Source: an uncultured Planctomycetales bacterium
GTDB lineage: Bacteria; Omnitrophota; Gorgyraeia; Zapsychrales; JAHFFX01
Length of the DNA: 64,000 nt
Reading direction: 5' to 3'
Assembly (NCBI GenBank): GCA_964612665.1
Contig: CAZTCI010000001.1
Coordinates: 508,896-572,895, forward strand
Part shown: positions 6,001 to 45,000 of the stretch, in pieces
Numbering within the stretch: position 1 is the stretch's first letter
How the letters are laid out: every line of letters starts with the position of its first letter
Translations under genes and position numbers: made by a program
The notes under the pieces: model-generated
What the model was told of the DNA's origin: nothing
Seen by the model: only the letters and a program-made list of their open reading frames with translations
The model's database searches: none

Positions 6001-9000
6001 GCGTCCCATTGCGTGGCTATGATAAAGATCTCGCTCGGGAACAAGGGCGATATTCAAAACATAATCTCTGAACGGTGCTTTTTCATAACTGCAATTTTTT
6101 TCGTATCTAAGCCAACCATCGAGATTTTCCATCGCCATTGAAAAAGATCCACGAAGTCCCGGGTTCGCCCTCCAAGCAACGATTTTCAGTAAGAGCTCTT
6201 TCAGTTTGTGATTTTCAAGTAACCGGCCCGTCGCTTGTCCTTGCCAGTTTAGTTCTTCCACATTAAACAACATCTGCGCCAAATATTGCGGAATCGAATT
6301 TAGTCGCCCTTCGGTCCCCCAAAGATCCAGGGCATTTGTTGACTGAGGATCGTTCGAGATCGCAGGATCAAATGTTTTGAAGTCCAGCGCCTCTTTGAGC
6401 ATCCATAACGTTAGATCCTCATAAGTAAAATCGGAAAATCCGCCATTACGCAAAGACAACGGCTGCTGTAATTGTTCACTCATAACAAAATAAAGTCCGA
6501 TCAATCGTCGGAGGCCTTGAATCAGCGGCGGGAAGTCAATCGGATAAGTTCTTTCTTTATCAAAGTGCATTCCAATTGTTCGCACATGCAACAAAAAGAA
6601 TATCGATGTCCAGGCGGTTAACCATTGTTCTTTCAGTTGTCCACCTGCCCAAAACCACATTCGTCGGGTTCCTATTTCAAATGGTTCGACATCCTCAAGC
6701 GAAGCCAAGCGCACAATATCCTGATTGGGATGACCATACTTTGATAACCAGCCTCTGGCTTTCCAATACCGACGCAGACAATCGCCGATCAATGAAAGCT
6801 CTTGCTCCGAAAGTGGGAGCAAATGACCATCTCCTGTCTCACTATCCATTCTTTCAGAAGTAGCATTCACAATTAGATAACCTAAGAGCTTTGTGAAACG
6901 TTGACTCTCGTGAGTGAGAGAATCAAAAATGGTTGAAGCATTAGCATTATGCAGGCTATACAAAACATATCTTCTCTGCTTTTCGTTATAATGTTCCGTA
7001 TTCAAATCTATCTTAGAATCTAACGTAAATTCCCACGCAGGTGGAAGTAACATGCCTTGCGAATTGATATACCCTAGTTGAACAAGATCATTAAATAACT
7101 GTGGCAAGTCTTTGTCAGGAACAATCCCCTTAAAACTTTTCAAGCTTACCGCATCATATTGATCGAGGAGGTTTGTCAGTGTTTCGATCCATTGCGCAAC
7201 GGGCCGCGATGTATTCTGAGCATTGGAATCAGTTAAAGTAACTTTCTGCTGTCTGACTGAGAGACGACGCCAGAAACTCTCTCCCCATGACAACTTCAGC
7301 ATCATCAAAATCCCGAAGACAATCAGCGCAAGCCATCCCCAACTTCCTTCCGCACCCGTCGTTGGCCAGAGAATCAGATGGCTGCTCAATTCATTTCCCG
7401 ACGCTGATTGAGCACTCAACATCACGATCCCCATCGCAGCGGCAATCATTCCGCCGCGCAGGCGTCCCCAAAATCCTCGTACTAAGCGAATTGCTAACGT
7501 AACAACGAGACCCGCAGTAATGACGGTCAATAATCGATTGAGAATAGATTGCAAAAGGTTTGAAAAAATAGGGTTGTGCTGCAGGAAGGAAAGAAGCGGA
7601 GTATCTTTTTTGCCGACGGGCGGGGCGTTGGGCTGCATCTTAGCATAGTGCCACACAATCAAAATACTAACGCCAATTAAAATCAATAGATATTGCACGA
7701 GTGAGTAGGTGTCCATGTTGAAAATGTTATTTGTTTTAGTCTCCCGATCAAAACCTCCATCCCGTTCGGCGAGCATCAGAAAAGCCGTCTCGGCGATGTG
7801 CATGTCGCTGATGCCGTGATGCAGATAGATTTTATGCACGCTGCGCGTCGAAAGACCGTTTCTGACGAGGCCCAGGTCCCAAACGCCCTGTCCTAACCGC
7901 AACCGATCACCGATTCCAGCGAGAAACTCCGGCGATGCATCCGCGACGGTAACAACCGGGGTGAACTTCCGTTCAGTCTTTGGAATTAATTTTTCTAATT
8001 GTTCGAATAGATTTTCTCTTCCTAACCGTCCAAGAAGAAGATTGGGGCTCGTCACCACAATCACATTGGCGTAAATGGGATAATTTTTATGAAGTTTCAA
8101 AAGCTCGTCGGACGCGGACAAGGCGGCCTGGACCATAGGACCGATGGCGACGATGTTAACCACATTGTCATCGGGATGGTAATCAGGAAGATGGCTGTAA
8201 TCGACGAGCCGGTAACCGCCTTTGAGAATTTCTGGGCCGAGACGCTTGATGGCGGCGGGTTCATTAAGGCCGGAATAAGTTTTCTGTTCCCGCAACCGCC
8301 GGAACAATCCGCTGCGTTCAACCAACAGGCTCGATGCGCGGATATACACGGCGTTACGCCCGTGGTCATGGCCGGTCAACATAAGTTCAAAGGTTTTTTT
8401 CAATATATAATCTAACTCGTCAAGAAAAGCCGGTTCCCACATAACCGTGTTGGGCATCGCCCGGCCGATGTCCGCCGAGACACTCGATTGATGTTGAGCA
8501 CCGTCGGTGGCCAGCGTTGGGCCGGACGGTGTTCCGACAGCAATAAATTGTGAACCCCAGTACTGGGCGTAAAAAAATTGATCCAGCGCCCGGCGGAATA
8601 AAAACATATCATAGATCGTAACAACCGGAATCAAACGCACGCCAAACAAATCATAAGCCTTGCCAAAAGCCGCCGCCAAGGTCACGGCGTTCATTTCTGT
8701 AATGCCAATGCGTAAATGATTTCCCGCAAATGAATCGGCGCTGACAACACCTTGAGTGGCGCCAGGAGCAATCATTCCCGTAGATGATCCAACATCCGGA
8801 GAAATCGTGACCAACCGCGGCGCTATTTTCTGCCAGAAGCGATCGTCTTCGGAAAGGTCCGCCGCCGCCGATTGACTGAGTAGACCTTTCACCCTATTAA
8901 TCGACATACCCAGATATGTCTGCGTTGGAATTCTCCCGCGGGCCGGTGAATAAAGTTTTTCCGGCCAGATTTGATTCTTTAATTCTGCTTCAAACGCCGC

Positions 9001-12000
9001 GCGGTTTGCATCGATCATTTGCTGCGCTTCGGCGGCTTCATGATCTAAACGTGAACGGACATTCTTAAGTGTCTTAAACTCGACGGAAGTTTCATTGAAA
9101 TTGGGGAATGGATTATCTTGCGGCATGCCTAATTCGTTACGGACCTGCGCCAATTCTTCGGGAGTCAATAACTGCGAATGGTTTCCTTCCTGACCAATCA
9201 TCGGTCTTAGACCCCAGCCTTTGATCGTATGCGCAATAATTACCGTCGGGCGATCGCTGGCGCGGGCTTCGCTCAAGGCTTTGATTAACTCAACCAAATC
9301 ATGGCCGCCCAAATCGGTAAAGAGCTCATAGATTTTTTCATCGCTGTATTTCTTCAAGAACCGCTTTATTGGCCTTTTCCTTTCCAAAGAGAGTTTCTTA
9401 TTCTTATCATCCAAGGGAAAAGGCCTAATATTGACTTTTGTTTCTTCCTTTGGATTCACAAAAGTCAATAAAGAAGAACGTTGTTCGATCATCCAAGCGC
9501 GGATTCCGGCGCCGTTTTGAGCGGAAAGATTTTGGTAAACTTTCTGGTCGATTGTTTCCATAACTTTCCTAAAGACACTTCCCCCTCGTCGGGCAAAAGC
9601 CGCTTGCAATTTTCGGCCCCAGCGCAGTTCAACGACTTGCCATCCAGCCGCCGCGTACATTCCGCGCAGTTGATCCAATTTCCAGTTTTCGGTATTTCCG
9701 TCGAGTGATTGGCGGTTGTAATCGACAATATGCGTCACGCGGTCCAAGTTAAATTCTTTCACTAACGTCAGAATCTCCCGCAGGTTTCCTTCTTCAGATT
9801 CAGCATCACCCAAGACCGCGAAGAAATGCGAATCAGAAACCGCATGGCCATGCGCCTTGAGCCATTTCCAAACAACGTTAAGTGCTAAGGCAACCGCCGG
9901 CCCTATGCCAACCGAGCCCGTCGGAATTTTGACGCCGTCCGGGTCCGCCATTCCCGGATACGCGTGCAGGCCTGGTTTGTCTAATTCATCCGTGTTGACT
10001 TCCGGATGCTTGGCGATGAAGGCGGCTTTTAATTCTTCAAGTTCTTTTAAGACTTCTGGCGCAAGACGGCCCCTGATATCTTCAGCCCTGAAATCAACCG
10101 GCAGCCGGACAGCGTTATCACGCAAACGATAAAGTGTATCGACGGGTAATCGACCTAAAAGATATTGAATGGCATGATACACCGGCGCGGCGTGCGGTTT
10201 GTGGGCGACAAAATCATGACCGCGCATGACAGCCAGCTCGAGGGCGATCATAATGTGCAATGCAGACGCGGATGCAGCCTGGTGCCCGCCGGTTTTAGGC
10301 AGTTCATATTTAATTTTATTGGCTTCATCAATTTCACCGATTGAAATCCCAAGCGCCCGACGGGCGATGCTTTCTAAAGCTTCGATGTCCTTCGGTGCAA
10401 ATCCTTCCGGAATTTTATCATTTCTATTTCGGGGAGGCCGGTGTCCGGATGAGCTCATTGCAACAATCATCATCGTGGACAAGAACAACGCAGCCACATG
10501 TCCACCTACGAAGTAGGACACAGCCAATAGTCCATCCAGTGCCAGCGCGATGAGGACAAGCGCAGTTGCAAATACGGTGGAGAGGTTTTGATCTGAGCAT
10601 TCTTTTATTCCATTTTTTGTTTTTTTGGTTTCCTGAGCTGAAAACTTTTTCCACCAGGCAAACGTTTCACTCAAACCCGTCCCAATATTCTTTTGTCGTC
10701 TCAACTTGTTGACAATCAAAATGATTAATGTTATGTTGGCGTCGAAAAGATCATTGATCAATAATTGCGTGGCCCTCTTTGAAAGATGGGAGAATCGTAA
10801 GTGAAGATCTGGGAATTTGAATGGGACAACTGGAATATTGAGCATATTGCTAAACATTCCGTAAAATCTCAAGAGGTAGAAGAAGCTTGTTATCGCCGCC
10901 ACGTCGCTAAGAAAACTAAAGATGACATTTATCTTGTCTATGGTCAAACGTATTCTGGCCGTTATCTTTTCATCGTTATTAAATATAAATCTAAAGGAAT
11001 TGTTTACCCTATAACCGCTCGAGACATGACTGATTCTGAGCAGAGATTCTTCCTTAAACGGAGGTAACATATGATTAAGAAGTCTTCTGTAATCCCAAAA
11101 TTTAAGAATGTCGCCGATGCGGCTGAATTCTTCGATCAACATGATACGACCCAGTTTCTCGACGAATTGCAACCAGCGCATCTTAAGTTCCCTAAGCCCA
11201 AGCATCTTTTGATCACCTTGAAACCTAAACAAATAACGAGGCTCAGACGCTTGGCCGACAAAATGGGTAAACCTTCCGATCAAATTGTTGAGCAATGGAT
11301 CACCCAAAAACTTGCCGAAGGGTAATGATCTGCCCAATGTGGCACGGCTCAATTTCTTTACAATCTCTTTAAAAACGCCTTTCGCTTTATCTGAGGATTT
11401 GGTTCGAATCGTCAGTATCAACAGCAACACATCAACGGCCAACACAAGGAACATCAAATGTAATCCCGGTCCCGGAACAAAATATCCTTTAAACACAACC
11501 ACCGGACGTTCCTCATCAGGCAGAAAACCTAATTCCTCGCGGATCTCCTCGGGAGATATTCTTAAAATATGTATGGGCTGAGGATGATCTTCAAAATATT
11601 TTAAGAACAGGCTTGTAATCGTTTGTCCGTTATCAGAAGCAATATGAAGACGGCCCAGAATAAAAAACGTGTCTTTAGCAGCTTTTCGGCCGCGCGATAA
11701 GATATTGATCATATTGGGGAACATGAATGGTTCCCTTAGGTCAATAGCGAATCTAAAGTTCTCCGAGACATTGATCCCTTTCAAAATTTCTTGAACAGCG
11801 GGCTCGGCCTGGCCGACGACATGATTTTCGCGTTTGGCTCTGGCCATGAGGGCTTTTATAAAAACAACAGTCAAATCACGCCAAGTTGTCAAGTCTTTAA
11901 GCATGTCCGCTGAGTTATCCGGGGGCAATGTTACGATCGCGGAAAAAACGAGACTGTTCCGGGTGTTGTAATAAAGAGAAATGCGTCTGTATAACGTTGT

Positions 12001-21000: not shown

Positions 21001-24000
21001 AATCGGCGCTCCGACGGAAAAATTAAATCTGACATTGCCATCGTTGTCCTGGATTCCTTCTCCAGCGAGCGTAAAGCGATTCGTCAGCGTCTGAACGTGT
21101 TCCAAAAATGTGCCTCGAAATTCCTGCGCGTCACCATGCTGAATCAAGTCGATCATCTCCGGCGTTAGTTTTTTCTGAATGCTCCAGATCACCGCGCCGA
21201 TGTAACGTCGAGTCACTGCCGAGCGAATCATTTTCCCATCGGCATCCAACGGGTGTTCGAAGACCTCCGCGACCACATGTCCCGTTGGGTGATTCAGAAT
21301 CATGGAACGAATTTGACGCGGACGGATCTGTTCGTAGGGCTGATTGACCCACGCGTCGTTATGAACCTGATAAAGTTCAAGGACATTCTCCAACGTCGGC
21401 CAGCGATACACAATCGTAATCCCCTGCTCCGGACGCTCCTCGCGCACGAACAGCGCCAGGTCGTCCAGCGGAATCTGCTCTATATTAGGAAAGAAGCGCT
21501 GCAGGGCATGATTCAATGTCGTGGGGATGTCTTGCCTTTGGAGCGCCAGCGGCGACGGAGCGGTGGACTCAAAATTCTTGATGCGGAATTGATAATATTC
21601 ATCTAAGGTGCTAAACCACGTTGAGAGCGGATGGCGATTGTTCTGGCGCCGAGCCGCTTCAAGAAGGCGGGAAGTTGAGCCAGAGAAGAACATCGTCGTC
21701 AAATGGCCGTTCAGATGGAGAGCTCTGGTATGAAGGATGGATACAACAAGGACTAAAATAATAGCCAAATTCAAAATCATCATCCATCCCCTGTCGTCAA
21801 AACCGTGGATGGCGAGGAAGTAGGTATGGGTGTTAGAATCGGCCGGACGAGTTACATAAGAACTCTGTCTAAGGACGGTCGCAATCAAAGCGAAGGCAAC
21901 GACAATGTATATATTAGAGAAGATACCTCGAACCTTTTTCTGATCTCCTCCGAACGCCTGCTCCATCGTTTTAGTCTCGAGACGGCCGGGATTGAATGGC
22001 GTCCGATCTTCCATCACTTTCCTTAGAATTCTCAACCGCCCGCCCAAGGCCAGTTCGCGGGATTGTCTGGCCGTAATGACATCCACATCCTGATCCGTAA
22101 ATCCGCGGGTTTGGAAATTGGAAATAGGATGCGCGTTAAAATTCTTGAGACGGGAATATTGTGCGTCGGTCAACCGGGCCTTGGCTTCATCCACATAACG
22201 GCCGGACGCAATCATTTGATCGGCTAATCCTTGAGGAGCAAAGACCCCGAATCGGGTCGGATGCTCCCAAACAACAATGATCACTCCCATTGGAAGACTC
22301 GCTAAAAATTCTTCTGTCCATCGCCGCGTCGATTCCAAGGGCGAAATGGTTCGATCGAGTTTGCGCGTTAGCCAAATATAAATATATTCATAAGCAAATT
22401 TTAAAAACACAACGTCCGCCGGCTTTATGTCTCGAACAAACGCTCTCATTTCATCTCTCGACATCAAATCACTCATATGATGATGAAGAGGCGCCAACTT
22501 TTCCAATCGCAGAATCGGATGACCGACGATCCCGACCAATTTTTCTTTCAGTCTTTTAAAACCCATCGTGATATCCCACTCACTCAGCCGATTGTCCACA
22601 GTTGTCATGGACGAAACATAATAACCGGCAAATAAATCAATCCCGGAAAGGATGTTGTGGAGTTGCGTATTGTTACGATTGAAGATCCCGATGGCGGAAA
22701 GGAGTTGTAATTGCAGGAAATAAATTCTGACTTTGATCGGAATCACGCTGTGTACGGTGAGCTGATCCTCACCGAGCCGAATCTGCTCTTCAATTTTACT
22801 GAGGATTTTTCGAACCGATTTTAGTGAATGGAGGAATTTAAATTTGAAAATGGAAACGACCATGAGTAACACGATGGCCAAATTCAAAATCATCATCCAT
22901 ACCCCGTCGTCAAAACCGTGAGTGCCGAGAAAATAGGCTTTGGTGTTGGAATTAGGAACCATGCACGGCATGTTCCACCCGATCATCATGTATCGGTTAA
23001 AAACAGCGATATCATGGTTCCCATCAGGTTTGACACCTCCAGTCATGTGTGTTATTCTTCCTTCACCGGAGGGGGACAACCAATGCATAAACGAAAGGAT
23101 AAAAACATGAACGCCATCAACATGACGGACATCGTCCGCAAGTCGATGCAAGAACTTGTTGTCCCTGAGTTGAAAATCTTGCAGGGTGATGTTCAGAGTC
23201 TCTAGAATGACAATCTTGAGATCAAGGCTGATCTTCGGATCCTCAATAACCGTGTCGACAATCTGGAAAAATCTTTGAACAGCCGGATGGATTCTCTCAA
23301 CAGCCGGATGGACTCCCTCGAGAAAAGGCTGGATAACTTGGATAAAAGGGTTGACGGCCTTGAAAGGCAAATTCATAGCATGCGCGAGGATTTTAAGCTC
23401 GCGCTCGATATTCATGAGCGGCTCACTGCGCTTGAAGTCAAAATTTCTCATCATAATTAGGCAGTGGTTTTGTTGACGAATCATCGCCGGGCCGATTTCC
23501 TCAAAGTTATATAAAGGAAATCGGCCCGTTGTTTTTTGGTTGCTGTATACGATTTTATAGAACGCCGTCACTGTCGAATCCCAGATCATATCGCGCCTAA
23601 GTAAGTCTTTATATCCCATCCCACCGGATTGACCATACCAAATGAAATAAACCAATGCCCATAAAACCAAGGCCACATCAATTCCAACCATGTATGATAA
23701 ATATGCCGATTGAACGCTGTTTTTATTTTGATCTGGCTCAAACGCAAACAAGCGCACGGACAGACGCGAATTCATATTCCTTAAAAGTTCATTTTGCTCA
23801 TTTATGATTTTTTCCAAATTCAACCGTCTCGCGATGGCCGCCGCGCCCACCAGTGCGACAATAACTTGGATCTCCCGTTGACCGGGCAGCCAGTTTTCCT
23901 GAAAATGCAGACGATTCATCTTCTTGATCAATTCTTTCTTCAAATTTAATTTTATTGATCGAATTTTGCCGGCCCGGGACGACAGAGGCACGTCAAAACT

Positions 24001-36000: not shown

Positions 36001-39000
36001 CTTATCTTGAATAAGGTCAATTAAACGGCTCTGTTGCTCACGGCTTAAATATCCTCTGGAATGACGTGGCATGCCCAAGATCGTATTGACAGCGGCTTCA
36101 TCTCTTTGCTGAGGAGCCCAAATAATTTTAAGTTTAGACTCTTTAATAACCGGCACAGGAGGATTCAGCCCGTACCATTTCTTCATTTCATAAAGAATTT
36201 CTACTGAGCTTTTTCCTTTTAGATCGTGATTTTTTGCCCAGTTCAGCAGAAGCCCCTCTAAACATTTTCCTCCAAACCCTGGAATACCTGTATGAATAAT
36301 ATCGCCCACTTTTAAATCTACTATCTTCCCTGCACGGCGATGATTGGCTAGATGTTGAAGGATCGCCCATTGCAACCGCTCTTCAAGTTTGTCCCAGGAG
36401 AATTTCCTCGCCCGTCGGAATTGATCCAATACCGTTTCCAATTCTTCAAGGGTTACTGGTTTTTCTTCTGCCATCGTCATAAGAACAGCAGATGCGCAGA
36501 GGACTGCTATCCACGCTTCCGCACCTACGAGGTGCTGATGGGTAACCATGGCGACGAAAGCGGCGGAAATGATGATAAAGCGGAAGACTCCGTCGAGGAA
36601 ATCATTCAGTCGGCTGGGTTGAACAAATACAATTCGACGCAAAATGGAATTCACATTGTCTTGGCCGACATACGCAAGCGCCGCCGCAATTCCTACCAGA
36701 ACAAAAATCCATAAGGATGGACCAACGGCCATCAGTTTTATCTCTCGATCCCAAAACTGACTTGGCCCACACCGGCGGACAACAAATTTCTTTTCCAAAT
36801 CCTCTTTGACCGTCGTCACATCTTCTTGGACGATCGCGTCCGCCACACGTAAAGAAAATCCCATTTGCAGGGCCTGACGGCCGGGCATGGATGGGCTATA
36901 TCTCAAGCGAAGCCCCTGAATCAACGCGCGATAGGGCGCTTCCTGTCCCCGGAGAAACTTAAGGAAGGCAAACTGTTTGATTTCTTTGGTGGATACGGAG
37001 GTTTCAATATTATTTCTAAGATACGCTAAAAATTCTTTGTAATAACTGACCCAGTGCTCAAGGATTCTTTCCAGCCCCAACTCATTTAATTGTTTGTTCA
37101 AACGATTTGTGTTCCCAAAGACCAAATCTGTCGGTTTAAATTTATCAAATGTATCGGAGGTAATAGGACTCAATAAACAGCGCTCATTTAACGTTGATAC
37201 ACTGAGCTCATGCTTTTCGCCCCCGATTCTGACCCACCGCCCCAATCCCCGTCGGGCCAGGGCAATGAGATATTCGGGTTCGATATCAAATTGATCTTTC
37301 CCTTGATAATAAACGTGAATGTCCAGGTCCTTGATCATGGACCACAATGGGATTTGATTTTCGCTAAAAAGATAGGTCGAGGAGCCGGTGACCGTGATGA
37401 TCGGAGCCTCCACAATGGATAACGTAGCGACTTGCTTTAGAAGTTCGATTAAATCGACCGGCGGTAAAGCTGGATTGTCTGGCTGAACAATAAACTGGCG
37501 CTCAGGACGATAGTAGGAAATGTGTTCATCTTGGTCCACGATCAAAACAGGCCAATGCACTGTTTGGACCGCCGCCAGTAATATCAGCGCGTAGACCGCC
37601 TCGTTCAAACCGATCAGATCTCCGTGGGCCAAAAGACCGGATAAAGCCGCGAGGATGGCGATAGGGCGGAAGAGTTGTGCGATCAACCTGCGGGAGTGAA
37701 CAGACTTGATAAAGCGGAAAATTCCGTCGAGGAATAACATCACCCTCTCCGACGGCGGCGAAGTCTTGAGAAATTCGTAAAACGCGCGGAGGTTTTCAAG
37801 GATGACGCGGGATTTGGAGATTAGAACAGCGGCCATCAAAACAATAATGAGAATTTCCGCGAGGTGAAACACATTATTCGACGAAAAATTTGATTTTCTC
37901 GTCGGTCTTATCCGTGCAGTCGAAAGGAAATCGATTCGATGGGCGTTCAACGTCGCGGCATCTAATAATTCAAACCCTGGGAATGTTTGATCGACGATAT
38001 GTTTAATCAAATCCGCCAACTGATCCGCAGGGATTTTGATTAGATATCCTGGAATTCGGTGCATCTGCTGAGGACTAATTTCCCTCATCTCTTCTGCAGT
38101 CAAAAATTGAACCGCGGCCATCGATACAACCCGGCCTTCTAATCTGTTGACAGTCCATTTTCGCGACATTATACTTTGAATCGAAAAGGAGATAGATTGA
38201 TGACTTCTCTTCAAGATGCTATGAAAATCATTAAACCGCTTCAAAACCGTTTCAAGAAAAGCCATAAGTCCAGAAGAAAAACGAAGATTGCCGACGATCT
38301 TTTGGGTGCGTTCAAAGGTGCGACCGAAGGTAAATCTTCCAGTCAATGTGTTCGAGAATTGAGAAATTCTTCTTATGGTAAGTTTAAATAACCCTTCCTT
38401 GCTCTTGGACTCCGATGTCCTTGTCAGCTGGTTGACGCTCGAAGAAGATATTCTTACCCATAAAAAGCTCTGGGAAGCTCCCCACAAAATAATGACAATG
38501 GTTGAGGAAAATTCTTCTCTCGGTTGTTCAACGATTATCAATCTTATGGAAATCAGGTTTGTGTTGCGTGCTAAGAAGAAATTCAGTGAGCATAAGATTA
38601 CATCTTCTCTTAATAAACTCTCCGAGATTCTGAAGCTATTCATTCCAGATGAAATCAACCTATTAAAGGCGAATGAACTCCAGTCCAAATATCTTTCATT
38701 ATCGCCAACCGACGCTATCCTTCTGTCTGTGGCCACAACCCTAGACAATGTTGTCCTAATCACCCGCGATCGAGAATTATTGAAAGCTGCCTCAAAAATT
38801 GTCTCCGCATCAACTCCTGAAGAATTTCTGGCGAAACGCTGATCTCTTCTGTTCCAATAAAAATTCCCCACCAGCATTGCAATTAGCCCAACCACTCCCT
38901 TAAACACAATCCAAATAAAGCGGAAAATTCCGTCGAGGAATAACATCATCATCTTCGACGGCGGTGAGGTTTTAAGAAGTTCGTAGAACGCGCGGAGGTT

Positions 39001-42000
39001 TTCGAGGATGACGCGGGATTTGGATAGCAGAACAGCGGCAACCAAAATAATGATTAGAATTTCCGCGAAGTTAAAGGAGTTATTCGTTGGAGAATTCGAT
39101 TTACCCGTCGATCTCGTGGCGAGAGCTCTGCTGTCCTGAGATCTTCTTTCTGTGGTGACGAAAGTTCCTACCCTTCTTAAAATTTTGATAACTCTATCCC
39201 TTCCCTGAAGGTTATTAGAACTCTGTCGAGATTGGGGTTGTTCAACGATCGGCAAAGTGACGAAAAAGCTGGCGCCCTGGCCCAACTCGCTCTCCACATC
39301 AATCTCTCCATTGTGCGCCGTAATAATGCTTTTCACAATGTAAAGTCCCTGGCCGGTCCCGTCTTTTCCTTTCGTCGTGAAATATGGCTCGAAGATTTTA
39401 GAGACCAGCTCGGGCGCGATCCCGGGGCCATTGTCTTTCACCTCGAATTGCACGAGGGGCGCATTGTCGATTGGCGTGACGATCAACTCAATCTTTCCGT
39501 CTGGTATCTGCGCTAAGGTATACACCGCATTCTTTAGGAGATTGATAAACGCATGCGTCATCTGAATTTGTTCGACATCGATTCTAATCCCGGCGGCAGC
39601 GGAAAAATCAATCTGAAGTTGCTGTGGATCGAAGAGAGCGAAGATCTCTTCAAAATGTCCTCTAAGATTAGTCAAGAATTCCTCGACGGAAATGACTTTC
39701 TTCTTACCTTTCCCGGAATAACTGAGATAAAAATCAATGATTATTTTAAGCCGGTGGGTAACGCTGTGGAGGGTTTTGAGGACTTCACGCTTGGCTTTAG
39801 GCTCAACGATACCTTGATCGATATTTTTGTCTTGCGGATGCTGGCGGAAATCTTTGACGAGCTGCTTCCAGGCGCGATGAAACTTTTTCAGTTCAGGTAA
39901 ATCATCGAGAAGGATTTGCAACGCCAACATAATTAACCTTTCGCGCTGTTCTTGTGTAAACGGTTGGGCATAATTTTCAAGCACCTGTTGTAATGCCGGA
40001 TTGAATAACCCACCTATTGGCCTTTTCTCTCTTAAAGATAAGGTTGTTCTGTCATGCTCGGGGAGAAAAGGCCTAATACTAGACTTTTGCAATGCAAAAG
40101 TCAGTAATAACTCCGCTCGCTGTTCTCCTGTAAGCAGCTCAGCATATTTTTCAAGCATCGCCCGTTTTAATTCTGGGTTTGATAATGACTGAATATCGAC
40201 ATAAGGTTGATCAGATGCGGCATGGTTGCGAAGAATCTTCAAATCATTAATTTTCTCGAGAAGATTTAAATCCATAATATTCTCACTCAAAGATTGCATA
40301 GCGGATTTGAATGGTTCCGGCAAAATATCGGCATTACCGTTTGCCGGATCAAAGAATAAAGTAATCACGGTCAAATCATTGCCGATTTCATGCAGGAAGA
40401 CCGGCCCCAAATCAGCGATGATCCCCTGCCAATAATCTTCTTTTGGTATCCGCATTACCATAACGACAACCATCGATAGTCCCAGCAGCCAATTGAACGG
40501 CATAATGTATACGGCGTTTCTCTCGGTTGGGAGCTTCATAAATACATATTCCCTTCTGGCCACTGTCTGAATTTCAAGACCAAGCGGCTTTCGGTTTAAC
40601 GTTTTGAGCATTTGGGTGATAAAGTTTATCCGCCGCAAAACTGATGTGATCGGCATGCTGCTGCCATCACCCAACGTCGTCCCTGGTTTTTCTTCCAGCA
40701 GCATCTCCATGGTCTGCCCAATAACTGTCAAGGCCCCGGACAGATTTATGACGACGGGCCCGTCTGTAATAGAATTTCTAAACGCCGTCCCCATCACATT
40801 GCTTTTCCGCACTAAAGCGATCAAATCCTTGGCCTTTGGTGTCGTATCATTGCCAAACACAGGGTCGGATTCTGCCTCCTGCTTGACGTTTAGCATTGCT
40901 TCCAAAATCAATCTTGCGGACTCGCGTGCCCGTGTCGGATCTCCTAACGCTTCGCGTTGGCCATTAACAAATTTAACGAACTTAACCAGCTCCGTGCGCA
41001 GAGCCTTAATCCATTGCGGCCATTCTAGGTAATAAAATAATTGTTCCAGGACTGCCATAATAAGGAGCGTGCGTTCTCCGACGGGTTGGATTGGATTTCT
41101 AGATATTTGTTCTTCTTTCTGTTCAATGTCTAGAATCAAATGCCAGACTGGCTCTACAAATGCTTTCCTCTCAAGCAAGCCCCTTGTATATTTGAAGAAA
41201 TCATTCTGAGATTCATGATGACGCAATACTCGACGGGCAGCCAAACGGGCCATGGGATATTTCATGGAGCCGATTAAATCAGTCAACGTAAGATAATTTT
41301 TTACAAAGCTGCGCAATCCTGGCTCTTCAATCAATCCTTTAAACTCAATCAGCTCGGAAATAAAACGGAAATAGAAAACAAACCGTTCTCCGCCGGCCTT
41401 ATAAAGGATCCGTTTCCTTCCCGTGGCGGAAATAGGCCTATCATTTAAAACTTCGATCAGCCAAGCAGCGATCAAAAGTCTTAATGCCTCCATGTCCTCA
41501 TCCTCAACCGGCCCACTTAAAATCCACGCGCGTTTTTCGTCGGTGGAAAGGGCCAGGAGATTATCGAGACCAGTATACTGGCCGCGCACCGCCATCAAAA
41601 ATACCGGAGCGCTCAGCAACATCAAAGACATTCCCATCCATAAAACGGTTTTGATGGCGAGTATAACCAACATCAATCCGCCCACGGCGCCGACCAAGGC
41701 GATGGAATGCAATTTCTCCTCGAGCTGCGCGATTTTATTTTCTATTCCATTTGTCTTTTCAGATTCTTGGTCTTTCTTCCCGTTTCCATTCAATTCAGTG
41801 GAATACGCTGTCAGAGTGAATAATTCTTTTAAGTCCTCTTCCCATTGCTTATGAAAAGGAAGGCTCTCTGCATATTCCTGGAAGAGACCTGCGCGCAGCT
41901 GACGCCACACCATATGGTCGAGCAAGACCTGACCATTGATGACAAATGCCTGCGCAAAGTGTCTTAATTCCTCGACGTAGGCCGGATATTTCTGTGAGAT

Positions 42001-45000
42001 CTTTTGTAAAGAAGACAATTCCTCGGATAGAGAATCTTTCTTAAGCAAAGCATCCACGTATTGTTCAATCTGTTGGCTTTTAGCATAGTCATGGTCTTGC
42101 GATAAACGGATACGTTCTTCAATACGATCCGTGGCTGTTTCAAAAGCAATGATCCAATCGGCATCAGAACCGGAGAATTCCGAGACATAGCTTGATACCC
42201 TGGACTTTAATAAAAGCCTGTGCGTCGTCCCGGCCTCACCGTTACGGGCGATACGGGCCATGATTTGTCGCATATCACGTTTGGAAAAAAGAACGTTGTA
42301 AAGAACAGCCACAACGCCGGAGGCAACATTGGTCAAAATATTCACCCCTCGGCCTCCCATGGGACTGGTAATAAGAATCGTAATCTGTAAGCGGCCTTTC
42401 TGGTTAATAACATAACCGGCCTTTTCAAATTGACCGGCTTCTTCCCTGCGCTTTTCAGGATTTTGATCGATCCCTAAAACAGTCTCAATCTTGATATCAT
42501 TGTTGGGCCGGCCTCTTTCCAAGATGGCGTTTAATAGTTCCTTGACATGATGGGCCGAAGCGATATCTTCCGTCGCGATAAAAACCGGCCTTCCTGACAA
42601 TAAAGCATTCATAACAATTTCGATTAAGCTTTGGTCCATCTCTTCCACGGTCTCATATCCGATGGAGGAATGATCAACCCGGATGGATTTGATATCGGAG
42701 GGTTGAACATACACTTGCATGTTCAATCTTTTCTTTAAATGCTGTTCAATCGTCGGACTCATCTCTGAACCACTGACCGCGGCATAGCCATGTCTATACA
42801 ACTTTAAAAGGGAGTGATACGTCAAGGCCGCCAAAAGCCGGCGCGGATTCTTTTCATTGTCGATACCGGAACGCGCTTCTATCATACGTTGTACCTCGGG
42901 AGAATAAACACGCAAAATGTCCGGGCGTTTACTATCGTCGGGAATAGGCAATACATTTTCACGTTTAGCATCTAAACAAAAATCATGATCCTCTTTAAGG
43001 TTCCAGCCAATCACCGCAAAGTCCGCCAGCTGACGCAAATGCGCATCAGAGATTTCATCTAATTCCCGACGATTTCTAAGAAATTCCATAATCTTCCGCG
43101 GGTCACGCCAAACCACTTGTCTTCCCTGATCGGAAGAAATAATCTCTTCGGGATTCGTAGCCCAATCTTTCAACAAAAAGAAGACGTCCTTATCAAAACG
43201 ATGCCACGCTGTATAGGCTGCGATAATTCTCTTCACTAATTCTTTATCCTTACCGTTGACGATGATGTCGATCGACAGAGTATTCAAGACGGAGAAGATA
43301 TCCCAAAGATAATAATCCGCCTCATCCAATAAAGCCCGACGATCAATGGTCAATGGTTGTTCTAAACTTTTTCTGGTCGAAATTTCTCGCGCCAGGGCTG
43401 TTAAAGAAATATATCGGATCTGTGCTTTGCCGGCTTCAGCCCAGAGAGAGGAACCAAAAAATCTAGTGAACCTTTTTGACTGGCCCGGAATAAGTAGTGT
43501 ACGGGACCCTTCGGTGATGCAGCTTACGGAATGCCCCAAAGAAGCCAAAATCCCGGCCTGACTGTTAAAGCCGTCTTGGGCCAAATGATCTGTCGTGGTG
43601 ACGATATCCGTTGATACACCCATTTTCTCCAGAGCATCGGCCGCCATCGACAAGGCCATGGTTTTTCCGGCGCTGGTATCAAACTTGACAAAATATCCCC
43701 GCGATCCGTCTTCGGTCCTCGGTTGCATCAAGAGTTCAGCAGTTTTAAGTTGTGCGGGGCGGCGTTGATACTTAATCATAATATTCTTATCAGCCATCCT
43801 TCGACGCGCAATGACCTCAAATTCCTCTAATGATTCCCTAATTACGTCGGGAAAATATTCGCTCAAGGATAAAGGCAGATCGGTCCACGCCACGCCATTT
43901 TGTATCGATGTTTTAATAATTTCTTTTTGTTCACTGAATACGTTCAGTTGAGGGGTGGGAGTCTCGTCGATCTCCCCAATGATATTCGCGGGCGTAGATA
44001 AAGATTCCATCTGAAGTCTTTCTGCCTCCTCTTCCAACGGCGAAACTTTTTCCGGACGCTGGAACTCAAACGACATCTCGGGTTCAGGAGGCTGAAAAGC
44101 AATTCCAAAATAATGGGCGAGATGATGGACTGACTTAAAGAATCTTTCCATTGATATCTCAAATCTTCCTTGTTCATAATTCTTCACTGACGACTGGCTT
44201 AATTGTAGAATTTCGGCAAATTGAGTTTGAGATAAGTCCAGCTCCTTACGAAGATGGGTTAAATTCAAGAGATATTTTTTCAGTAAAGCATTCTGTTGGC
44301 TGTTTGGAGAGGATTTCGCTTCTTGTTGAACATCATTGATGAATTCTTTCACTTCCGTCGGGACCTCACTGGAAACATTGTCCATTAAGAAATCTATAAC
44401 CTTCTTCATTGACTTTGCGCTAAGTTTCCATGCCTTGGCAGAACTTGCGTGATCTACAATATATTTTTGCCCTCCCATCGACGCGATCATTGTCTCGACA
44501 GAGTATCTCTGCTTAAAACGATTTAGTAAATGCTTAATCGGCTCGCTCAATCTCTTAAAAATTTCGCGTCGTTCTTCTCTTGATGCACGCAAAGCTTGTG
44601 CATACAAAAGCTGTATCTGCTGCTTCCACTGCTTAATGTCTCGAGACCACTCACCAATGGGCTGAACATCCTCATTCTGCCCACCGAAAGTAGAGATGAT
44701 GATAGATTCATCGATGAGCTGAACATTCTCATTCTGCTCAAAAGCGATAGGAATCTCGTCCGCCTCTTGTAATGAAATCAAGCTAGAGATTGGCTTTTCT
44801 TCTTCAATGAACTGAGTATCCTCATTCTGCTTACCGATCAAACTTTCATCGACCTCAGGCAAAGTTAATTCAAAAGTCGTTTCTTCATCGCTTTCTGGAG
44901 TAAGGATGATGATAGATTCATCGATGAACTGAACATTCTCGTTCTGCTCAAAAGCGATAGGAATCTCGCCCATCTCCCCAATTCCATTCGTGGGCGGAGA

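Follow-up and report, generated by a model that had tools for sequence, protein, structure and literature searches.

How can a complete toxin-antitoxin (TA)-like gene pair occupy the opposite strand of a giant gene while the giant reading frame stays open? This question is raised by a locus in a 64,000-nt stretch of DNA (the window), where the initial annotation had placed a VapB/PIN-VapC-like module between direct repeats within a giant open reading frame (ORF), captured there and then domesticated.

Anatomy of the antisense cassette

The minus-strand frame with codon starts at 63999-3i contains no stop over 64,000 nt, compared with 849 to 1344 stops in the other five frames, confirming that the giant frame is open. 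This ORF (positions 1 to 64000, minus strand) runs off both window ends, spans at least 21,333 codons, and is a mosaic with many transmembrane (TM)-like segments (127 hydrophobic windows). Its in-frame Pfam domains include HATPase_c, several HTH_3, Sigma70_r4_2, transketolase, methyltransferase, DAO, GerE, and SecA_DEAD (E = 4.4e-5, just under the cut-off), and P-loop_SecA was also matched. Omnitrophota-type giant genes are characterized by a length above 10,000 codons, abundant TM segments, and a SecA DEAD domain of divergent sequence (10.1101/2023.11.21.568195), and the host ORF has all three. No homologue of the host flanks of the cassette was found among 5.8 billion proteins.

Antisense to this frame, the annotated gene pair forms part of a complete plus-strand unit of promoter, ribosome-binding site (RBS), partner ORF, and PIN ORF at 38147 to 38842. 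The unit lies within a conserved cassette block (38107 to 38892, plus strand), and nothing else in the region is common to other nested loci. The sigma-70-type promoter, TTGACA-17-TATACT, matches 11 of 12 consensus positions (38147 to 38175, plus strand, antisense to the giant gene), and the RBS, AAGGAG (38186 to 38191, plus strand), ends 8 nt before the ATG at 38200. Of the 11 other nested loci tested, 10 have an equivalent promoter 22 to 42 nt 5' of the start codon, and a GGAG-type RBS is kept in all nested loci. The partner ORF overlaps the PIN ORF by 17 nt (ATGGTAAGTTTAAATAA), exactly the overlapping stop-start originally described. Two small codirectional genes with a stop/start overlap and their own promoter have the layout of a type II TA operon. 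This two-gene arrangement is kept in nested and free-standing relatives, and the window cassette carries only the two TA genes.

The downstream ORF (38375 to 38842, plus strand) encodes a 155-aa protein with a PIN domain. The profile search that the annotation had suggested bore out this assignment, with matches to Pfam PIN (PF01850; E = 9.5e-9, 36.4 bits versus a curated cut-off of 23.6) and PIN_3 (PF13470; E = 3.9e-6, 28.1 bits versus a curated cut-off of 27). Residues D12, D14, E59, D113, and D132 are invariant across 17 family members and are all present in the window protein, which on its sequence alone has the acidic active site of PIN/VapC proteins (Asp, Glu, Asp, Asp). The AlphaFold2 model (pLDDT 94.4) has alternating strands and helices. 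When this model was compared with the PDB using Foldseek, the top 40 matches were all PIN/VapC proteins (probability 1.00), the best being VapC toxins with TM-scores of up to 0.70/0.81, and the VapC matches came from Shigella, Mycobacterium, Pyrococcus, and Rickettsia. The window PIN protein is a putative VapC-like RNase toxin.

The upstream ORF (38200 to 38391, plus strand) encodes a 63-aa putative antitoxin (MTSLQDAMKII...ADDLLGAFKG...CVRELRNSSYGKFK) and most likely starts at the ATG at 38200 rather than at the TTG at 38176. A Pfam search at E <= 1 returned no match, and NCBIfam gave only sub-threshold noise. VapB identity was rejected, since neither database revealed an AbrB/SpoVT, RHH/CopG, PHD/YefM, or MerR/HTH domain. 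The partner belongs to an unnamed family of 55- to 65-aa proteins with the motif TLxxAI...LLGKxKG...TSTEFIxxLR...YGK, and a homologue lies upstream of every nested PIN gene and of many free-standing ones. The proposed VapB/PIN-VapC-like module therefore stands as a two-gene PIN/VapC module, without a recognizable VapB, and the data support a putative PIN/VapC-like type II TA module.

Stop avoidance and the strand under selection

Across 38125 to 38892, the antisense strand contains no stops in the giant phase, whereas its two remaining phases have 17 and 21. The giant frame is thus open across the insert, as proposed; the accompanying probability of about 2e-3 has to be relaxed: re-synthesis of both coding sequences with host codon usage gave P(no stop) = 0.03 (0.055 for the partner and 0.53 for the PIN gene). 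Among free-standing relatives, 9 of 117 (about 8%) are also stop-free across the PIN gene in the giant phase. Taken alone, the stop-freeness of the window cassette appears moderately improbable and is only suggestive; the strong significance of the read-through comes from its recurrence across loci.

The two genes avoid antisense stops in different ways. The partner ORF lies codon-on-codon with the giant frame, and it never uses TTA, CTA, or TCA: among 109 Leu/Ser codons counted there, none is one of these three, against 145 of 434 for the PIN gene (Fisher p = 2e-17). The PIN ORF occupies the phase in which it and the giant frame share their wobble positions. Here, the nested genes have no T- or C-ending codon before Tyr and no T-ending codon before His or Gln (the preceding base is A in 7 of 7 cases for Tyr and is T in 0 of 46 for His/Gln), and they encode on average 4.5 Tyr, His, and Gln residues per protein versus 8.9 in free-standing relatives. 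This codon avoidance and residue depletion agree with the original suggestion that the cassette sequence is shaped to keep the giant frame open.

Identities at codon positions 1, 2, and 3 are 0.68, 0.77, and 0.45 for the partner gene and 0.63, 0.80, and 0.43 for the PIN gene, so that the most variable position is plus-strand position 3, even where this is position 1 of the giant frame. When the same columns are translated in each direction, amino-acid identity is 56 to 58% in the plus frames and 33% in the giant frame. The proteins under selection are those of the plus strand; over this stretch the giant frame does no more than stay clear of stops. Domestication in the sense of co-option into the giant protein is contradicted by these data. 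Across the cassette, translation of the giant frame through the reverse complement would give a Ser- and Arg-rich filler of about 255 aa.

Recurrence of the cassettes and the repeats around them

All PIN relatives with at least about 49% identity, at 11 further loci in Omnitrophota-type metagenome-assembled genomes (MAGs), lie antisense in stop-free frames; these frames have 0 stops, run off both ends of loci of 1.2 to 20 kb, and are always in the same codon phase. The more distant relatives (n = 117) are ordinary free-standing genes with an average of 2.9 antisense stops. In a neighbour-joining tree, the nested copies form an exclusive clade of 11 tips. Homology of the window to L001-L008, L029, L065, L066, and L106, by blastp of the giant frame and by blastn, is confined to about 38107 to 38892, and the flanks of the nested loci are unrelated to one another. 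The idea of capture followed by domestication in this gene is too narrow in light of this comparison, because the stop-free adaptation is common to an exclusive clade at 11 or more other giant-ORF loci with unrelated flanks. For the same reason, the cassette most likely arrived in the window gene pre-adapted.

The cassettes are not limited to one family. As the initial annotation had suggested looking for, a second antisense TA cassette lies in the same giant ORF at 10709 to 11325 (plus strand). It consists of a promoter (10709 to 10737, plus strand; TTGACA-17-TATGTT with an upstream TG), brnT (10801 to 11067, plus strand; Pfam BrnT_toxin, E = 9.2e-7, 29.5 bits, below the curated cut-off of 34.5), and brnA/CopG (11071 to 11325, plus strand; Pfam CopG_antitoxin, E = 5e-9, above the cut-off). 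Homologous brnT/brnA pairs are antisense in L029 and L066, and antisense cassettes elsewhere comprise HicAB, MazF, further PINs, and DUF433/DUF5615. In the window and 115 kb of other giant-gene DNA, all Pfam families matched by antisense ORFs are TA families.

The window cassette lies between duplicated module-boundary segments, as had been described, and both encode the quoted giant-frame peptide; the repeats are 200 nt rather than about 210 bp, with coordinates shifted by about 10 to 25 nt. Copy B, upstream in the giant-gene direction (38915 to 39114, minus strand), encodes a TM-like module-boundary segment (...NNSFNFAEILIIILVAAVLLSKSRVILENLRAFYELLKTSPPSKMMMLFLDGIFRF), and copy A, downstream (37709 to 37908, minus strand), encodes its counterpart (...NNVFHLAEILIIVLMAAVLISKSRVILENLRAFYEFLKTSPPSERVMLFLDGIFRF). 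The copies are 84% identical at a spacing of 1206 nt (402x3). With a dN/dS of 0.30 in the giant frame, both remain under giant-frame purifying selection, and a dS of about 0.41 marks them as old. A third, older, diverged copy of the motif (...SLWIFVLVGIAAALAYV...NDFLDGVFRFI) lies about 1.1 kb further along (36574 to 36708, minus strand) with no adjoining cassette; it was found by blastp at 36.7% identity (E = 0.015), with nucleotide matches of 26 to 28 nt. Given their age and this third copy, the window repeats could stem from an ordinary module duplication.

Between copy A and the cassette is an orphan spacer (37909 to 38106, minus strand) without a Pfam match, and no match to it was found among 1.84 billion representative proteins. 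Its giant-frame reading, MSRKWTVNRLEGRVVSMAAVQFLTAEEMREISPQQMHRIPGYLIKIPADQL..., has an ATG at 38169-38167 and reaches into the cassette block. At L002 and L005, the equivalent spacer is a remnant of a second cassette, hicB.

Within 178 kb there are 21 local direct-repeat pairs, and every spacing is a multiple of 3. Of these pairs, eight bracket a PIN cassette, versus 1.07 expected, a count reached in 0 of 2e6 simulations. The duplicated host sequence differs from locus to locus, and the duplications are long and variable (58 to 303 nt); a hairpin-containing 58-nt repeat occurs only at L008. Repeats also bracket a MazF cassette at L029 (203 nt, 96%), a PIN_3 cassette at L006, and a further PIN at L004, and some repeats of other TA families are 96 to 100% identical, starting 17 to 26 nt before the promoter and ending 5 to 36 nt after the toxin stop. 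No flanking repeats were found at the nested loci L007, L065, and L066, and searches for terminal inverted repeats, a shared end motif, or a recombinase found none. An IS or transposon was rejected, given the content of only two TA genes, the lack of terminal inverted repeats, and the long and variable duplications. An integron gene cassette was also rejected: neither end of the window cassette carries an inverted-repeat site, and the 64-kb window holds no integrase domain except for a sub-threshold Phage_int_SAM_4 match in the giant frame. In the searches made, no empty site or orthologous locus for the window cassette was found. These data establish the anatomy, homology, phase, stop avoidance, selected strand, recurrence, and repeat association of the cassette.

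Origin of the arrangement and known systems

The locus probably belongs to a lineage of TA cassettes specialized for antisense life in the giant ORFs of Omnitrophota-type bacteria and transparent to their translation. The window region would be an intact TA cassette, predicted to be expressed autonomously from its own sigma-70 promoter and RBS, with the PIN toxin translationally coupled to the 63-aa partner. It is held stop-free in a single giant-gene frame, so that the giant protein would read through; the partner gene achieves this in the codon-on-codon phase by omitting TTA, CTA, and TCA, and the PIN gene, in the wobble-coincident phase, by having few Tyr, His, and Gln residues and restricted ends of the preceding codons. 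The cassette probably entered where the giant protein has a TM module boundary and duplicated 200 nt of its target, which would leave an intact boundary helix on each side of the filler. Integration would then be coupled mechanistically to a long, variable target duplication. We infer that the pair acts as an addiction module of stable toxin and labile antitoxin. If so, selection would act against any deletion in this stretch of the giant gene, and the cassette itself would be hard to lose; the cassette may thereby stabilize the giant gene against deletion.

Several other readings were weighed. The repeats may be ordinary paralogous module-boundary segments between which the cassette merely happens to lie, as the cassette-free third copy, the age and giant-frame selection of the window repeats, the nested loci without repeats, and other local duplications in giant genes would allow. 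This reading is unlikely, because bracketing of PIN cassettes is about 8-fold above expectation across loci, each locus duplicates different host sequence, and other TA families are bracketed likewise, sometimes at 96 to 100% identity. Such near-identical host repeats, tightly bracketing the cassettes, imply recent insertion into an existing frame, which argues against a reversed order of events, in which the giant ORF grew over a small opposite-strand TA operon by fusing genes through stop loss, with addictive TA genes alone persisting as working antisense passengers. That order would fit the patchwork of ordinary, mutually unrelated domains in the giant ORF (transketolase, methyltransferase, histidine-kinase ATPase, sigma-70 region 4, LuxR, and many XRE HTH), antisense ORFs that yield TA families only, and free-standing outgroups that already tend to be open in the giant antisense phase. 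We consider it quite improbable, since the nested copies are one exclusive clade in unrelated flanks and the repeats are under giant-frame purifying selection.

A one-off local event, in which a generic mobile TA cassette landed here and its antisense stops were purged in situ, would account for the window repeats and read-through as first described, and the 8% of free-standing relatives that are already stop-free across the PIN gene would fit it as well. It is nonetheless very improbable: every one of the closest relatives lies inside a giant frame, in the same phase and with the same codon avoidance, and the adaptation therefore dates back to the clade's ancestor and was not acquired in the window gene. 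That the plus-strand ORFs arose by chance or are relics in decay, with a conservation that simply reflects constraint on the giant protein, is scarcely credible. The PIN gene is truncated at one locus, L029, but 11 of 12 loci retain the catalytic residues, the promoter, the RBS, and the overlap of the genes even though synonymous divergence is close to saturation, and both the variability of plus-strand position 3 and the higher plus-frame amino-acid identity argue against this reading.

The specialized lineage of antisense cassettes resembles several known systems in part. The host ORF is like the described giant genes of Omnitrophota in its length of over 21,000 codons, its numerous TM segments, its divergent SecA_DEAD, and its patchwork of enzyme domains, and the relatives of the window cassette come from Omnitrophota MAGs; those descriptions, however, do not mention antisense, opposite-strand, nested, embedded, PIN, or TA genes within giant genes, and neither they nor a literature search yielded a report of antisense TA cassettes in giant genes (10.1101/2023.11.21.568195; 10.64898/2026.06.07.730766). 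The two-gene operon, stop/start overlap, and PIN-fold toxin with conserved acidic residues (D12, E59, D113, and D132) are shared with VapBC type II TA modules. Unlike in VapBC, the partner shows no domain of the AbrB, RHH, PHD, or MerR type, and the whole operon, promoter included, lies inside an opposite-strand ORF of another gene.

TA cassettes of Vibrio chromosomal superintegrons were reportedly proposed by Szekeres et al. in 2007 to stabilize large cassette arrays against deletion. The present cassettes are similar in being many, small, from several families, with their own promoters, and spread across one large, deletion-prone, non-essential-looking region, and they may have the same stabilizing role. 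They differ in having no integrase or attC, in lying inside a coding frame where they are necessarily stop-free, and in being bracketed by duplicated host sequence instead of attC. Rickettsia palindromic elements, which Ogata et al. are said to have found in 2000 inserted in-frame into protein-coding genes, likewise exemplify selfish DNA that persists within ORFs and is translated as an extra, tolerated peptide. Those elements are noncoding palindromes of about 100 to 150 bp, whereas the element here is a two-gene operon of about 0.7 kb, predicted to be functional and read antisense. Finally, antiparallel overprinted bacterial genes, such as E. coli O157:H7 laoB, originate de novo on top of a gene already resident there (PMC5810103). 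Both cases have protein-coding frames on both strands, and in both the wobble-aligned antisense phase minimizes mutual constraint. In contrast to laoB, the embedded partner here is a gene pair that is old and widespread and also has free-standing relatives, and the overlap would have arisen through insertion and is seen again at other loci and in other families.

The antisense cassette and its host frame

The cassette lies antisense within a minus-strand frame (codons starting at 63999-3i) that contains 0 stops over 64,000 nt, against 849 to 1344 in the other five frames, at a window GC content of about 45%. Its translation is at least 21,333 aa long and contains about 127 TM-like hydrophobic windows together with a very mixed set of Pfam domains (HATPase_c, several XRE-type HTH_3, Sigma70_r4_2, SecA_DEAD/P-loop_SecA, transketolase, methyltransferase, DAO, and GerE). 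The predicted giant protein of the window fits the published picture of Omnitrophota giant genes, with mosaic enzyme content, many TM regions, and a divergent SecA DEAD domain (10.1101/2023.11.21.568195; 10.64898/2026.06.07.730766). It has many sense-oriented, XRE/antitoxin-like HTH domains, and these might be antitoxin genes captured in frame. A tandem duplication of about 1 kb on the minus strand at 43958-45667 (721 nt aligned, 86%, spacing 1002) also contains sense-strand XRE HTH_3 domains.

On the plus strand, a promoter (TTGACA-17-TATACT, 38147-38175; 11/12 consensus matches) and an RBS (AAGGAG, 38186-38191) precede a partner ORF at 38200-38391 (63 aa), for which the ATG at 38200 is the most plausible start. 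The partner overlaps by 17 nt the start of the PIN ORF (38375-38842, 155 aa), so that the overlapping antisense pair proposed in the initial annotation is present at 38200-38842. The PIN ORF was also correctly assigned there as a PIN toxin, since it matches Pfam PIN (E = 9.5e-9) and PIN_3, both over the cut-offs. Twenty-four database proteins of 144 to 170 aa match the window PIN at 36 to 66% identity, and it keeps all family-invariant residues, including D12, D14, E59, D113, and D132. Its AlphaFold2 model has a pLDDT of 94.4, and the best PDB matches to the model are VapC toxins and archaeal PIN proteins (TM-scores up to 0.70/0.81). VapC was also recovered by a profile search of PDB sequences with the window PIN. 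These data indicate a genuine two-gene module of old origin. An exact-sequence look-up returned no called gene for the window PIN; callers presumably suppress an ORF that lies under the giant ORF.

Pfam and NCBIfam gave nothing usable for the partner. The description of the pair as VapB/VapC-like therefore holds for the toxin, by its PIN fold and VapC matches, but not for the partner, which falls in no known VapB family. In bacteria and archaea alike, nested and free-standing relatives keep the partner upstream of PIN; its conserved motifs are TLxxAI, LLGKxKG, TSTEFIxxLR, and YGK. It belongs to a conserved, unnamed family of 55- to 65-aa proteins found across bacteria and archaea (L009, L011, L013, L014, L017, L018, and other free-standing loci), which is a candidate new antitoxin family. 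On the minus strand at 37885-38169, the giant frame encodes a 95-aa, protein-like spacer peptide that starts with an ATG abutting the -10 box of the cassette (MSRKWTVNRLEGRVVSMAAVQFLTAEEMREISPQQMHRIPGYLIKIPADQLADLIKHIVDQ...). This peptide had no Pfam match and no homologue among 1.84 billion representative proteins.

Nested relatives, stop avoidance, and selection

Loci with PIN relatives were fetched for comparison (n = 140); the comparison of locus DNA covers relatives beyond the two closest, P0001 (66%) and P0002 (60%). All PIN relatives with at least about 49% identity, plus the one in L106, are antisense in a 0-stop frame that extends past both locus ends (loci of at most 20.4 kb). The nested loci are L001-L008, L029, L064-L066, and L106, and the named records among them are MAGs assigned to Candidatus Omnitrophota or auto-classified as "Planctomycetales." PIN has one and the same codon phase relative to the giant frame in all of them, and in a neighbour-joining tree the nested copies group as an exclusive 11-tip clade. 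More distant relatives (n = 117; Nitrospirota, Elusimicrobia, many archaea, and others) occur as ordinary free-standing genes, which contain a mean of 2.9 stops in that antisense phase and 0 stops in only 9/117. This finding indicates that antisense nesting of the PIN cassette is conserved, and a one-off local domestication is very unlikely.

Giant-frame similarity between loci is limited to the cassette (window positions ~38107-38892), and the flanks are unrelated. Synteny between nested loci was ruled out, as common domains lie on differing sides of the cassette depending on the locus. When L005 (9108-9837) was compared with the closely related L003 (943-1672), differences amounted to 1.1% of sites in the PIN gene region, 7.7% in the partner gene and promoter region, and 13% in the adjacent flank (L005 8149-8456). 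This mosaic divergence suggests that part of the cassette was recently recombined or transferred between giant-gene backgrounds that had already diverged.

The giant frame was said to remain open through the insert, and there are indeed 0 stops across 38125-38892, with 17 and 21 in the other two antisense phases. The probability of about 2e-3 first attached to this openness is roughly right only if the noncoding parts are included; resynthesis of the coding part with host codon usage gives P = 0.03 for the window alone. Within-gene shuffles (P = 0.43 and 0.11) were rejected as a null because they preserve the adapted codon usage and are uninformative, and host-usage resynthesis and the empirical base rate in free-standing relatives were used instead. 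The real weight for stop avoidance comes from replication across loci rather than from the window alone.

Position 3 of one PIN codon and positions 1 and 2 of the next lie opposite a single giant codon, and therefore the wobble positions of both frames coincide. Antisense stops in PIN arise solely where a T/C-ending codon precedes Tyr or a T-ending codon precedes His/Gln. The sum of Tyr, His, and Gln per PIN averages 4.5 in nested copies versus 8.9 in free-standing ones; in nested PINs, the base preceding Tyr is A in 7/7 cases, and that preceding His/Gln is T in 0/46. The partner is codon-on-codon with the giant frame, and TTA, CTA, and TCA would therefore read as stops. These codons account for 0/109 Leu/Ser codons in the partner versus 145/434 in the adjacent PIN genes (Fisher p = 2e-17).

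Plus-frame identity at codon positions 1, 2, and 3 is 0.68, 0.77, and 0.45 in the partner gene and 0.63, 0.80, and 0.43 in the PIN gene. The predictions of the two frames are opposite in the partner-gene region, where plus-frame position 3, corresponding to giant-frame position 1, varies most. Over the same columns, amino-acid identity is 56% for the partner versus 33% for the giant-frame translation. Because of this codon-position variability and the difference in identity, amino-acid selection is assigned to the plus-strand proteins, with the giant frame across the cassette only kept open. The same pattern contradicts the possibility that the plus-strand ORFs are relics. The promoter and RBS are kept in 10/11 other nested loci tested, the exception being a deletion derivative. 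Compared with the rest of the giant protein (Ser and Arg, 6.7% each), the read-through peptide is aberrant in composition (Ser, 14.5%; Arg, 11.8%). The window repeats that bracket the cassette have the opposite selection pattern, with differences of 13/3/16 by codon position and a dN/dS of 0.30 in the giant frame. The giant protein is thus the selected product there, and this purifying selection argues that translation of the giant ORF is real.

Flanking repeats and other antisense cassettes

The initial annotation described two direct repeats around the cassette; these are present, at the corrected coordinates 37709-37908 and 38915-39114 (200 nt, 84% identical, spacing 1206 = 402 × 3), and the giant frame reads both as the same TM-like peptide. 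Local direct repeats are rare: 178 kb of giant-gene DNA yielded 21 pairs, and spacings are divisible by 3 in 21/21. Eight pairs bracket the ~0.7-kb PIN cassette (window, L004, L005, L006, and L008) versus 1.07 expected, a number reached in 0/2 × 10^6 simulations, and L002 has the same repeat-bracketed arrangement. The duplicated sequence differs by locus, from 58 nt at 100% (L008) to ~300 nt at 69% (L006). In-frame direct repeats also bracket other antisense cassettes, namely, an AF2212-like antitoxin and PemK/MazF pair (L029 10316-11448; 203 nt, 96%), a PIN_3 pair (L006 13951-14841; 87 nt, 87%), and a further PIN (L004 2572-4284). In the youngest cases, the insert begins 17 to 26 nt before the -35 box and ends 5 to 36 nt past the toxin stop. 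Neither a transposase or integrase nor terminal inverted repeats or an end motif common to the cassettes was found. Hairpins at cassette ends are not general: the 58-nt perfect direct repeat in L008 (9670-9727 and 10468-10525) includes a perfect hairpin (16-bp stem; AGAGGCGCTCTTTGCC ... GGCAAAGAGCGCCTCT), which may be a terminator, a recombination site, or host sequence, and none comparable was seen at the window cassette.

This geometry points to insertion with an in-frame target duplication of variable length rather than to a giant ORF that grew over a pre-existing operon. Candidate mechanisms would be a Campbell-type "insertion-duplication" from a circular molecule containing the repeat and cassette, or capture at a widely staggered break. 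The repeats of the window could instead be a module duplication without connection to the insertion. Because they are old (dS ~0.41) and an older third copy of the boundary motif (36574-36708) is without a cassette, we leave this reading a small share of the probability. To look for an empty site, a spliced query of flank, single repeat, and flank was used; it returned only generic histidine-kinase matches covering at most 33% of the query, and no match once the kinase domain was removed. The window flanks had no homologue in 5.8 billion proteins, so that no orthologue of the site, empty or occupied, was recovered.

A search for other TA cassettes in the same gene, as the initial annotation had recommended, identified a plus-strand BrnT/BrnA cassette at 10709-11325 (promoter TTGACA-17-TATGTT with an upstream TG; brnT, 10801-11067; brnA/CopG, 11071-11325), which is without flanking direct repeats. 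Homologous pairs are antisense in L029 (1564-2085) and L066 (3928-4434). In L005, a hicB-like gene and HicA (Pfam E = 8e-12) lie at 8353-8893, directly upstream of the PIN cassette. L002 and L003 (L002 591-889) have an in-frame 651-nt (217 × 3) deletion running from inside hicB to just before the RBS of the PIN cassette, which fuses the hicB 5' end to that RBS and removes the cassette's own promoter. These loci were considered as the empty site of the L005 HicAB and rejected, as the junctions are those of a deletion retaining the hicB 5' end.

An antisense scan of 141 ORFs of at least 65 aa from L004-L008, L029, L065, and L066 (114.6 kb) matched only TA families in Pfam: PIN (9), PIN_3 (8), DUF433 (3), DUF5615 (3), PemK (3), HicA (2), CopG_antitoxin (2), BrnT (2), DUF5647 (1), and AF2212-like (1). 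A DUF5647 cassette is also found at L002 146-418, and the L029 PIN of the studied family, next to the MazF cassette, is truncated after ~96 aa. The whole window has 11 strong sigma-70-like sites (≥10/12) antisense to the giant gene (plus strand) versus 3 on the minus strand. One plus-strand site at 23030 (TTGACA-17-TATTCT) is followed by an RBS and a 40-aa ORF (23083-23202) without a family match; it lies just beyond a 103-nt repeat pair (21737-21839 / 22850-22952).

Interpretation and comparison with known systems

We consider it probable that the window contains a functional, self-expressed PIN-type TA cassette, of a lineage adapted to lie antisense and stop-free in giant ORFs, that was inserted at a TM module boundary with target duplication. 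Type II TA systems are addictive, and by analogy the cassette would be expected to have an addiction effect. Addiction would stabilize the surrounding giant gene against deletion, in the manner of superintegron TA cassettes, and would equally aid the cassette's own persistence; convergent transcription may affect giant-gene expression. More tentatively, and with somewhat less than even confidence, we propose that giant ORFs of Omnitrophota-type bacteria are landing pads for a guild of translation-transparent TA cassettes (PIN, BrnT/BrnA, HicAB, MazF, DUF433/DUF5615, and DUF5647). Each would have evolved to lack stops on its antisense strand and would insert independently of a recombinase with an in-frame 58- to 300-nt target duplication; jointly they would act as addiction modules that guard these enormous and costly genes from deletion and possibly tune expression through convergent transcription. 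If true, this would represent a previously unrecognized mobile-gene lifestyle and a mechanism for giant-gene maintenance.

As judged from sequence, a complete functional operon can sit on the opposite strand inside another gene and leave that gene unbroken, under explicit rules of phase choice, codon avoidance, and amino-acid depletion. This would be a natural, replicated case of long antisense dual coding made by insertion instead of overprinting, and it brings to light genes that are hidden from view when standard callers discard them. Embedded addiction modules offer a testable answer to how small-genome bacteria keep ORFs of 60 to >400 kb from decay or deletion. The target duplications, being in frame and variable in length, suggest a route of integration that has not been described. 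The read-through filler suggests that part of the length of a giant protein is not functional protein, which bears on the interpretation of giant-protein architecture.

Two published accounts of Omnitrophota giant genes (10.1101/2023.11.21.568195; 10.64898/2026.06.07.730766) make no mention of antisense, opposite-strand, nested, embedded, PIN, or TA genes inside them, and a literature search on nested or antisense TA genes returned nothing comparable. The PIN/partner module is predicted to work similarly to VapBC but differs in that the window partner lies outside every known VapB family. Taken singly, the VapC-like TA module and the Omnitrophota giant gene are of known kinds. What appears new is the arrangement, in which a whole operon is translation-transparent in antisense. 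It is found repeatedly, at different loci and with different TA families, and in association with long target duplications that are in frame.
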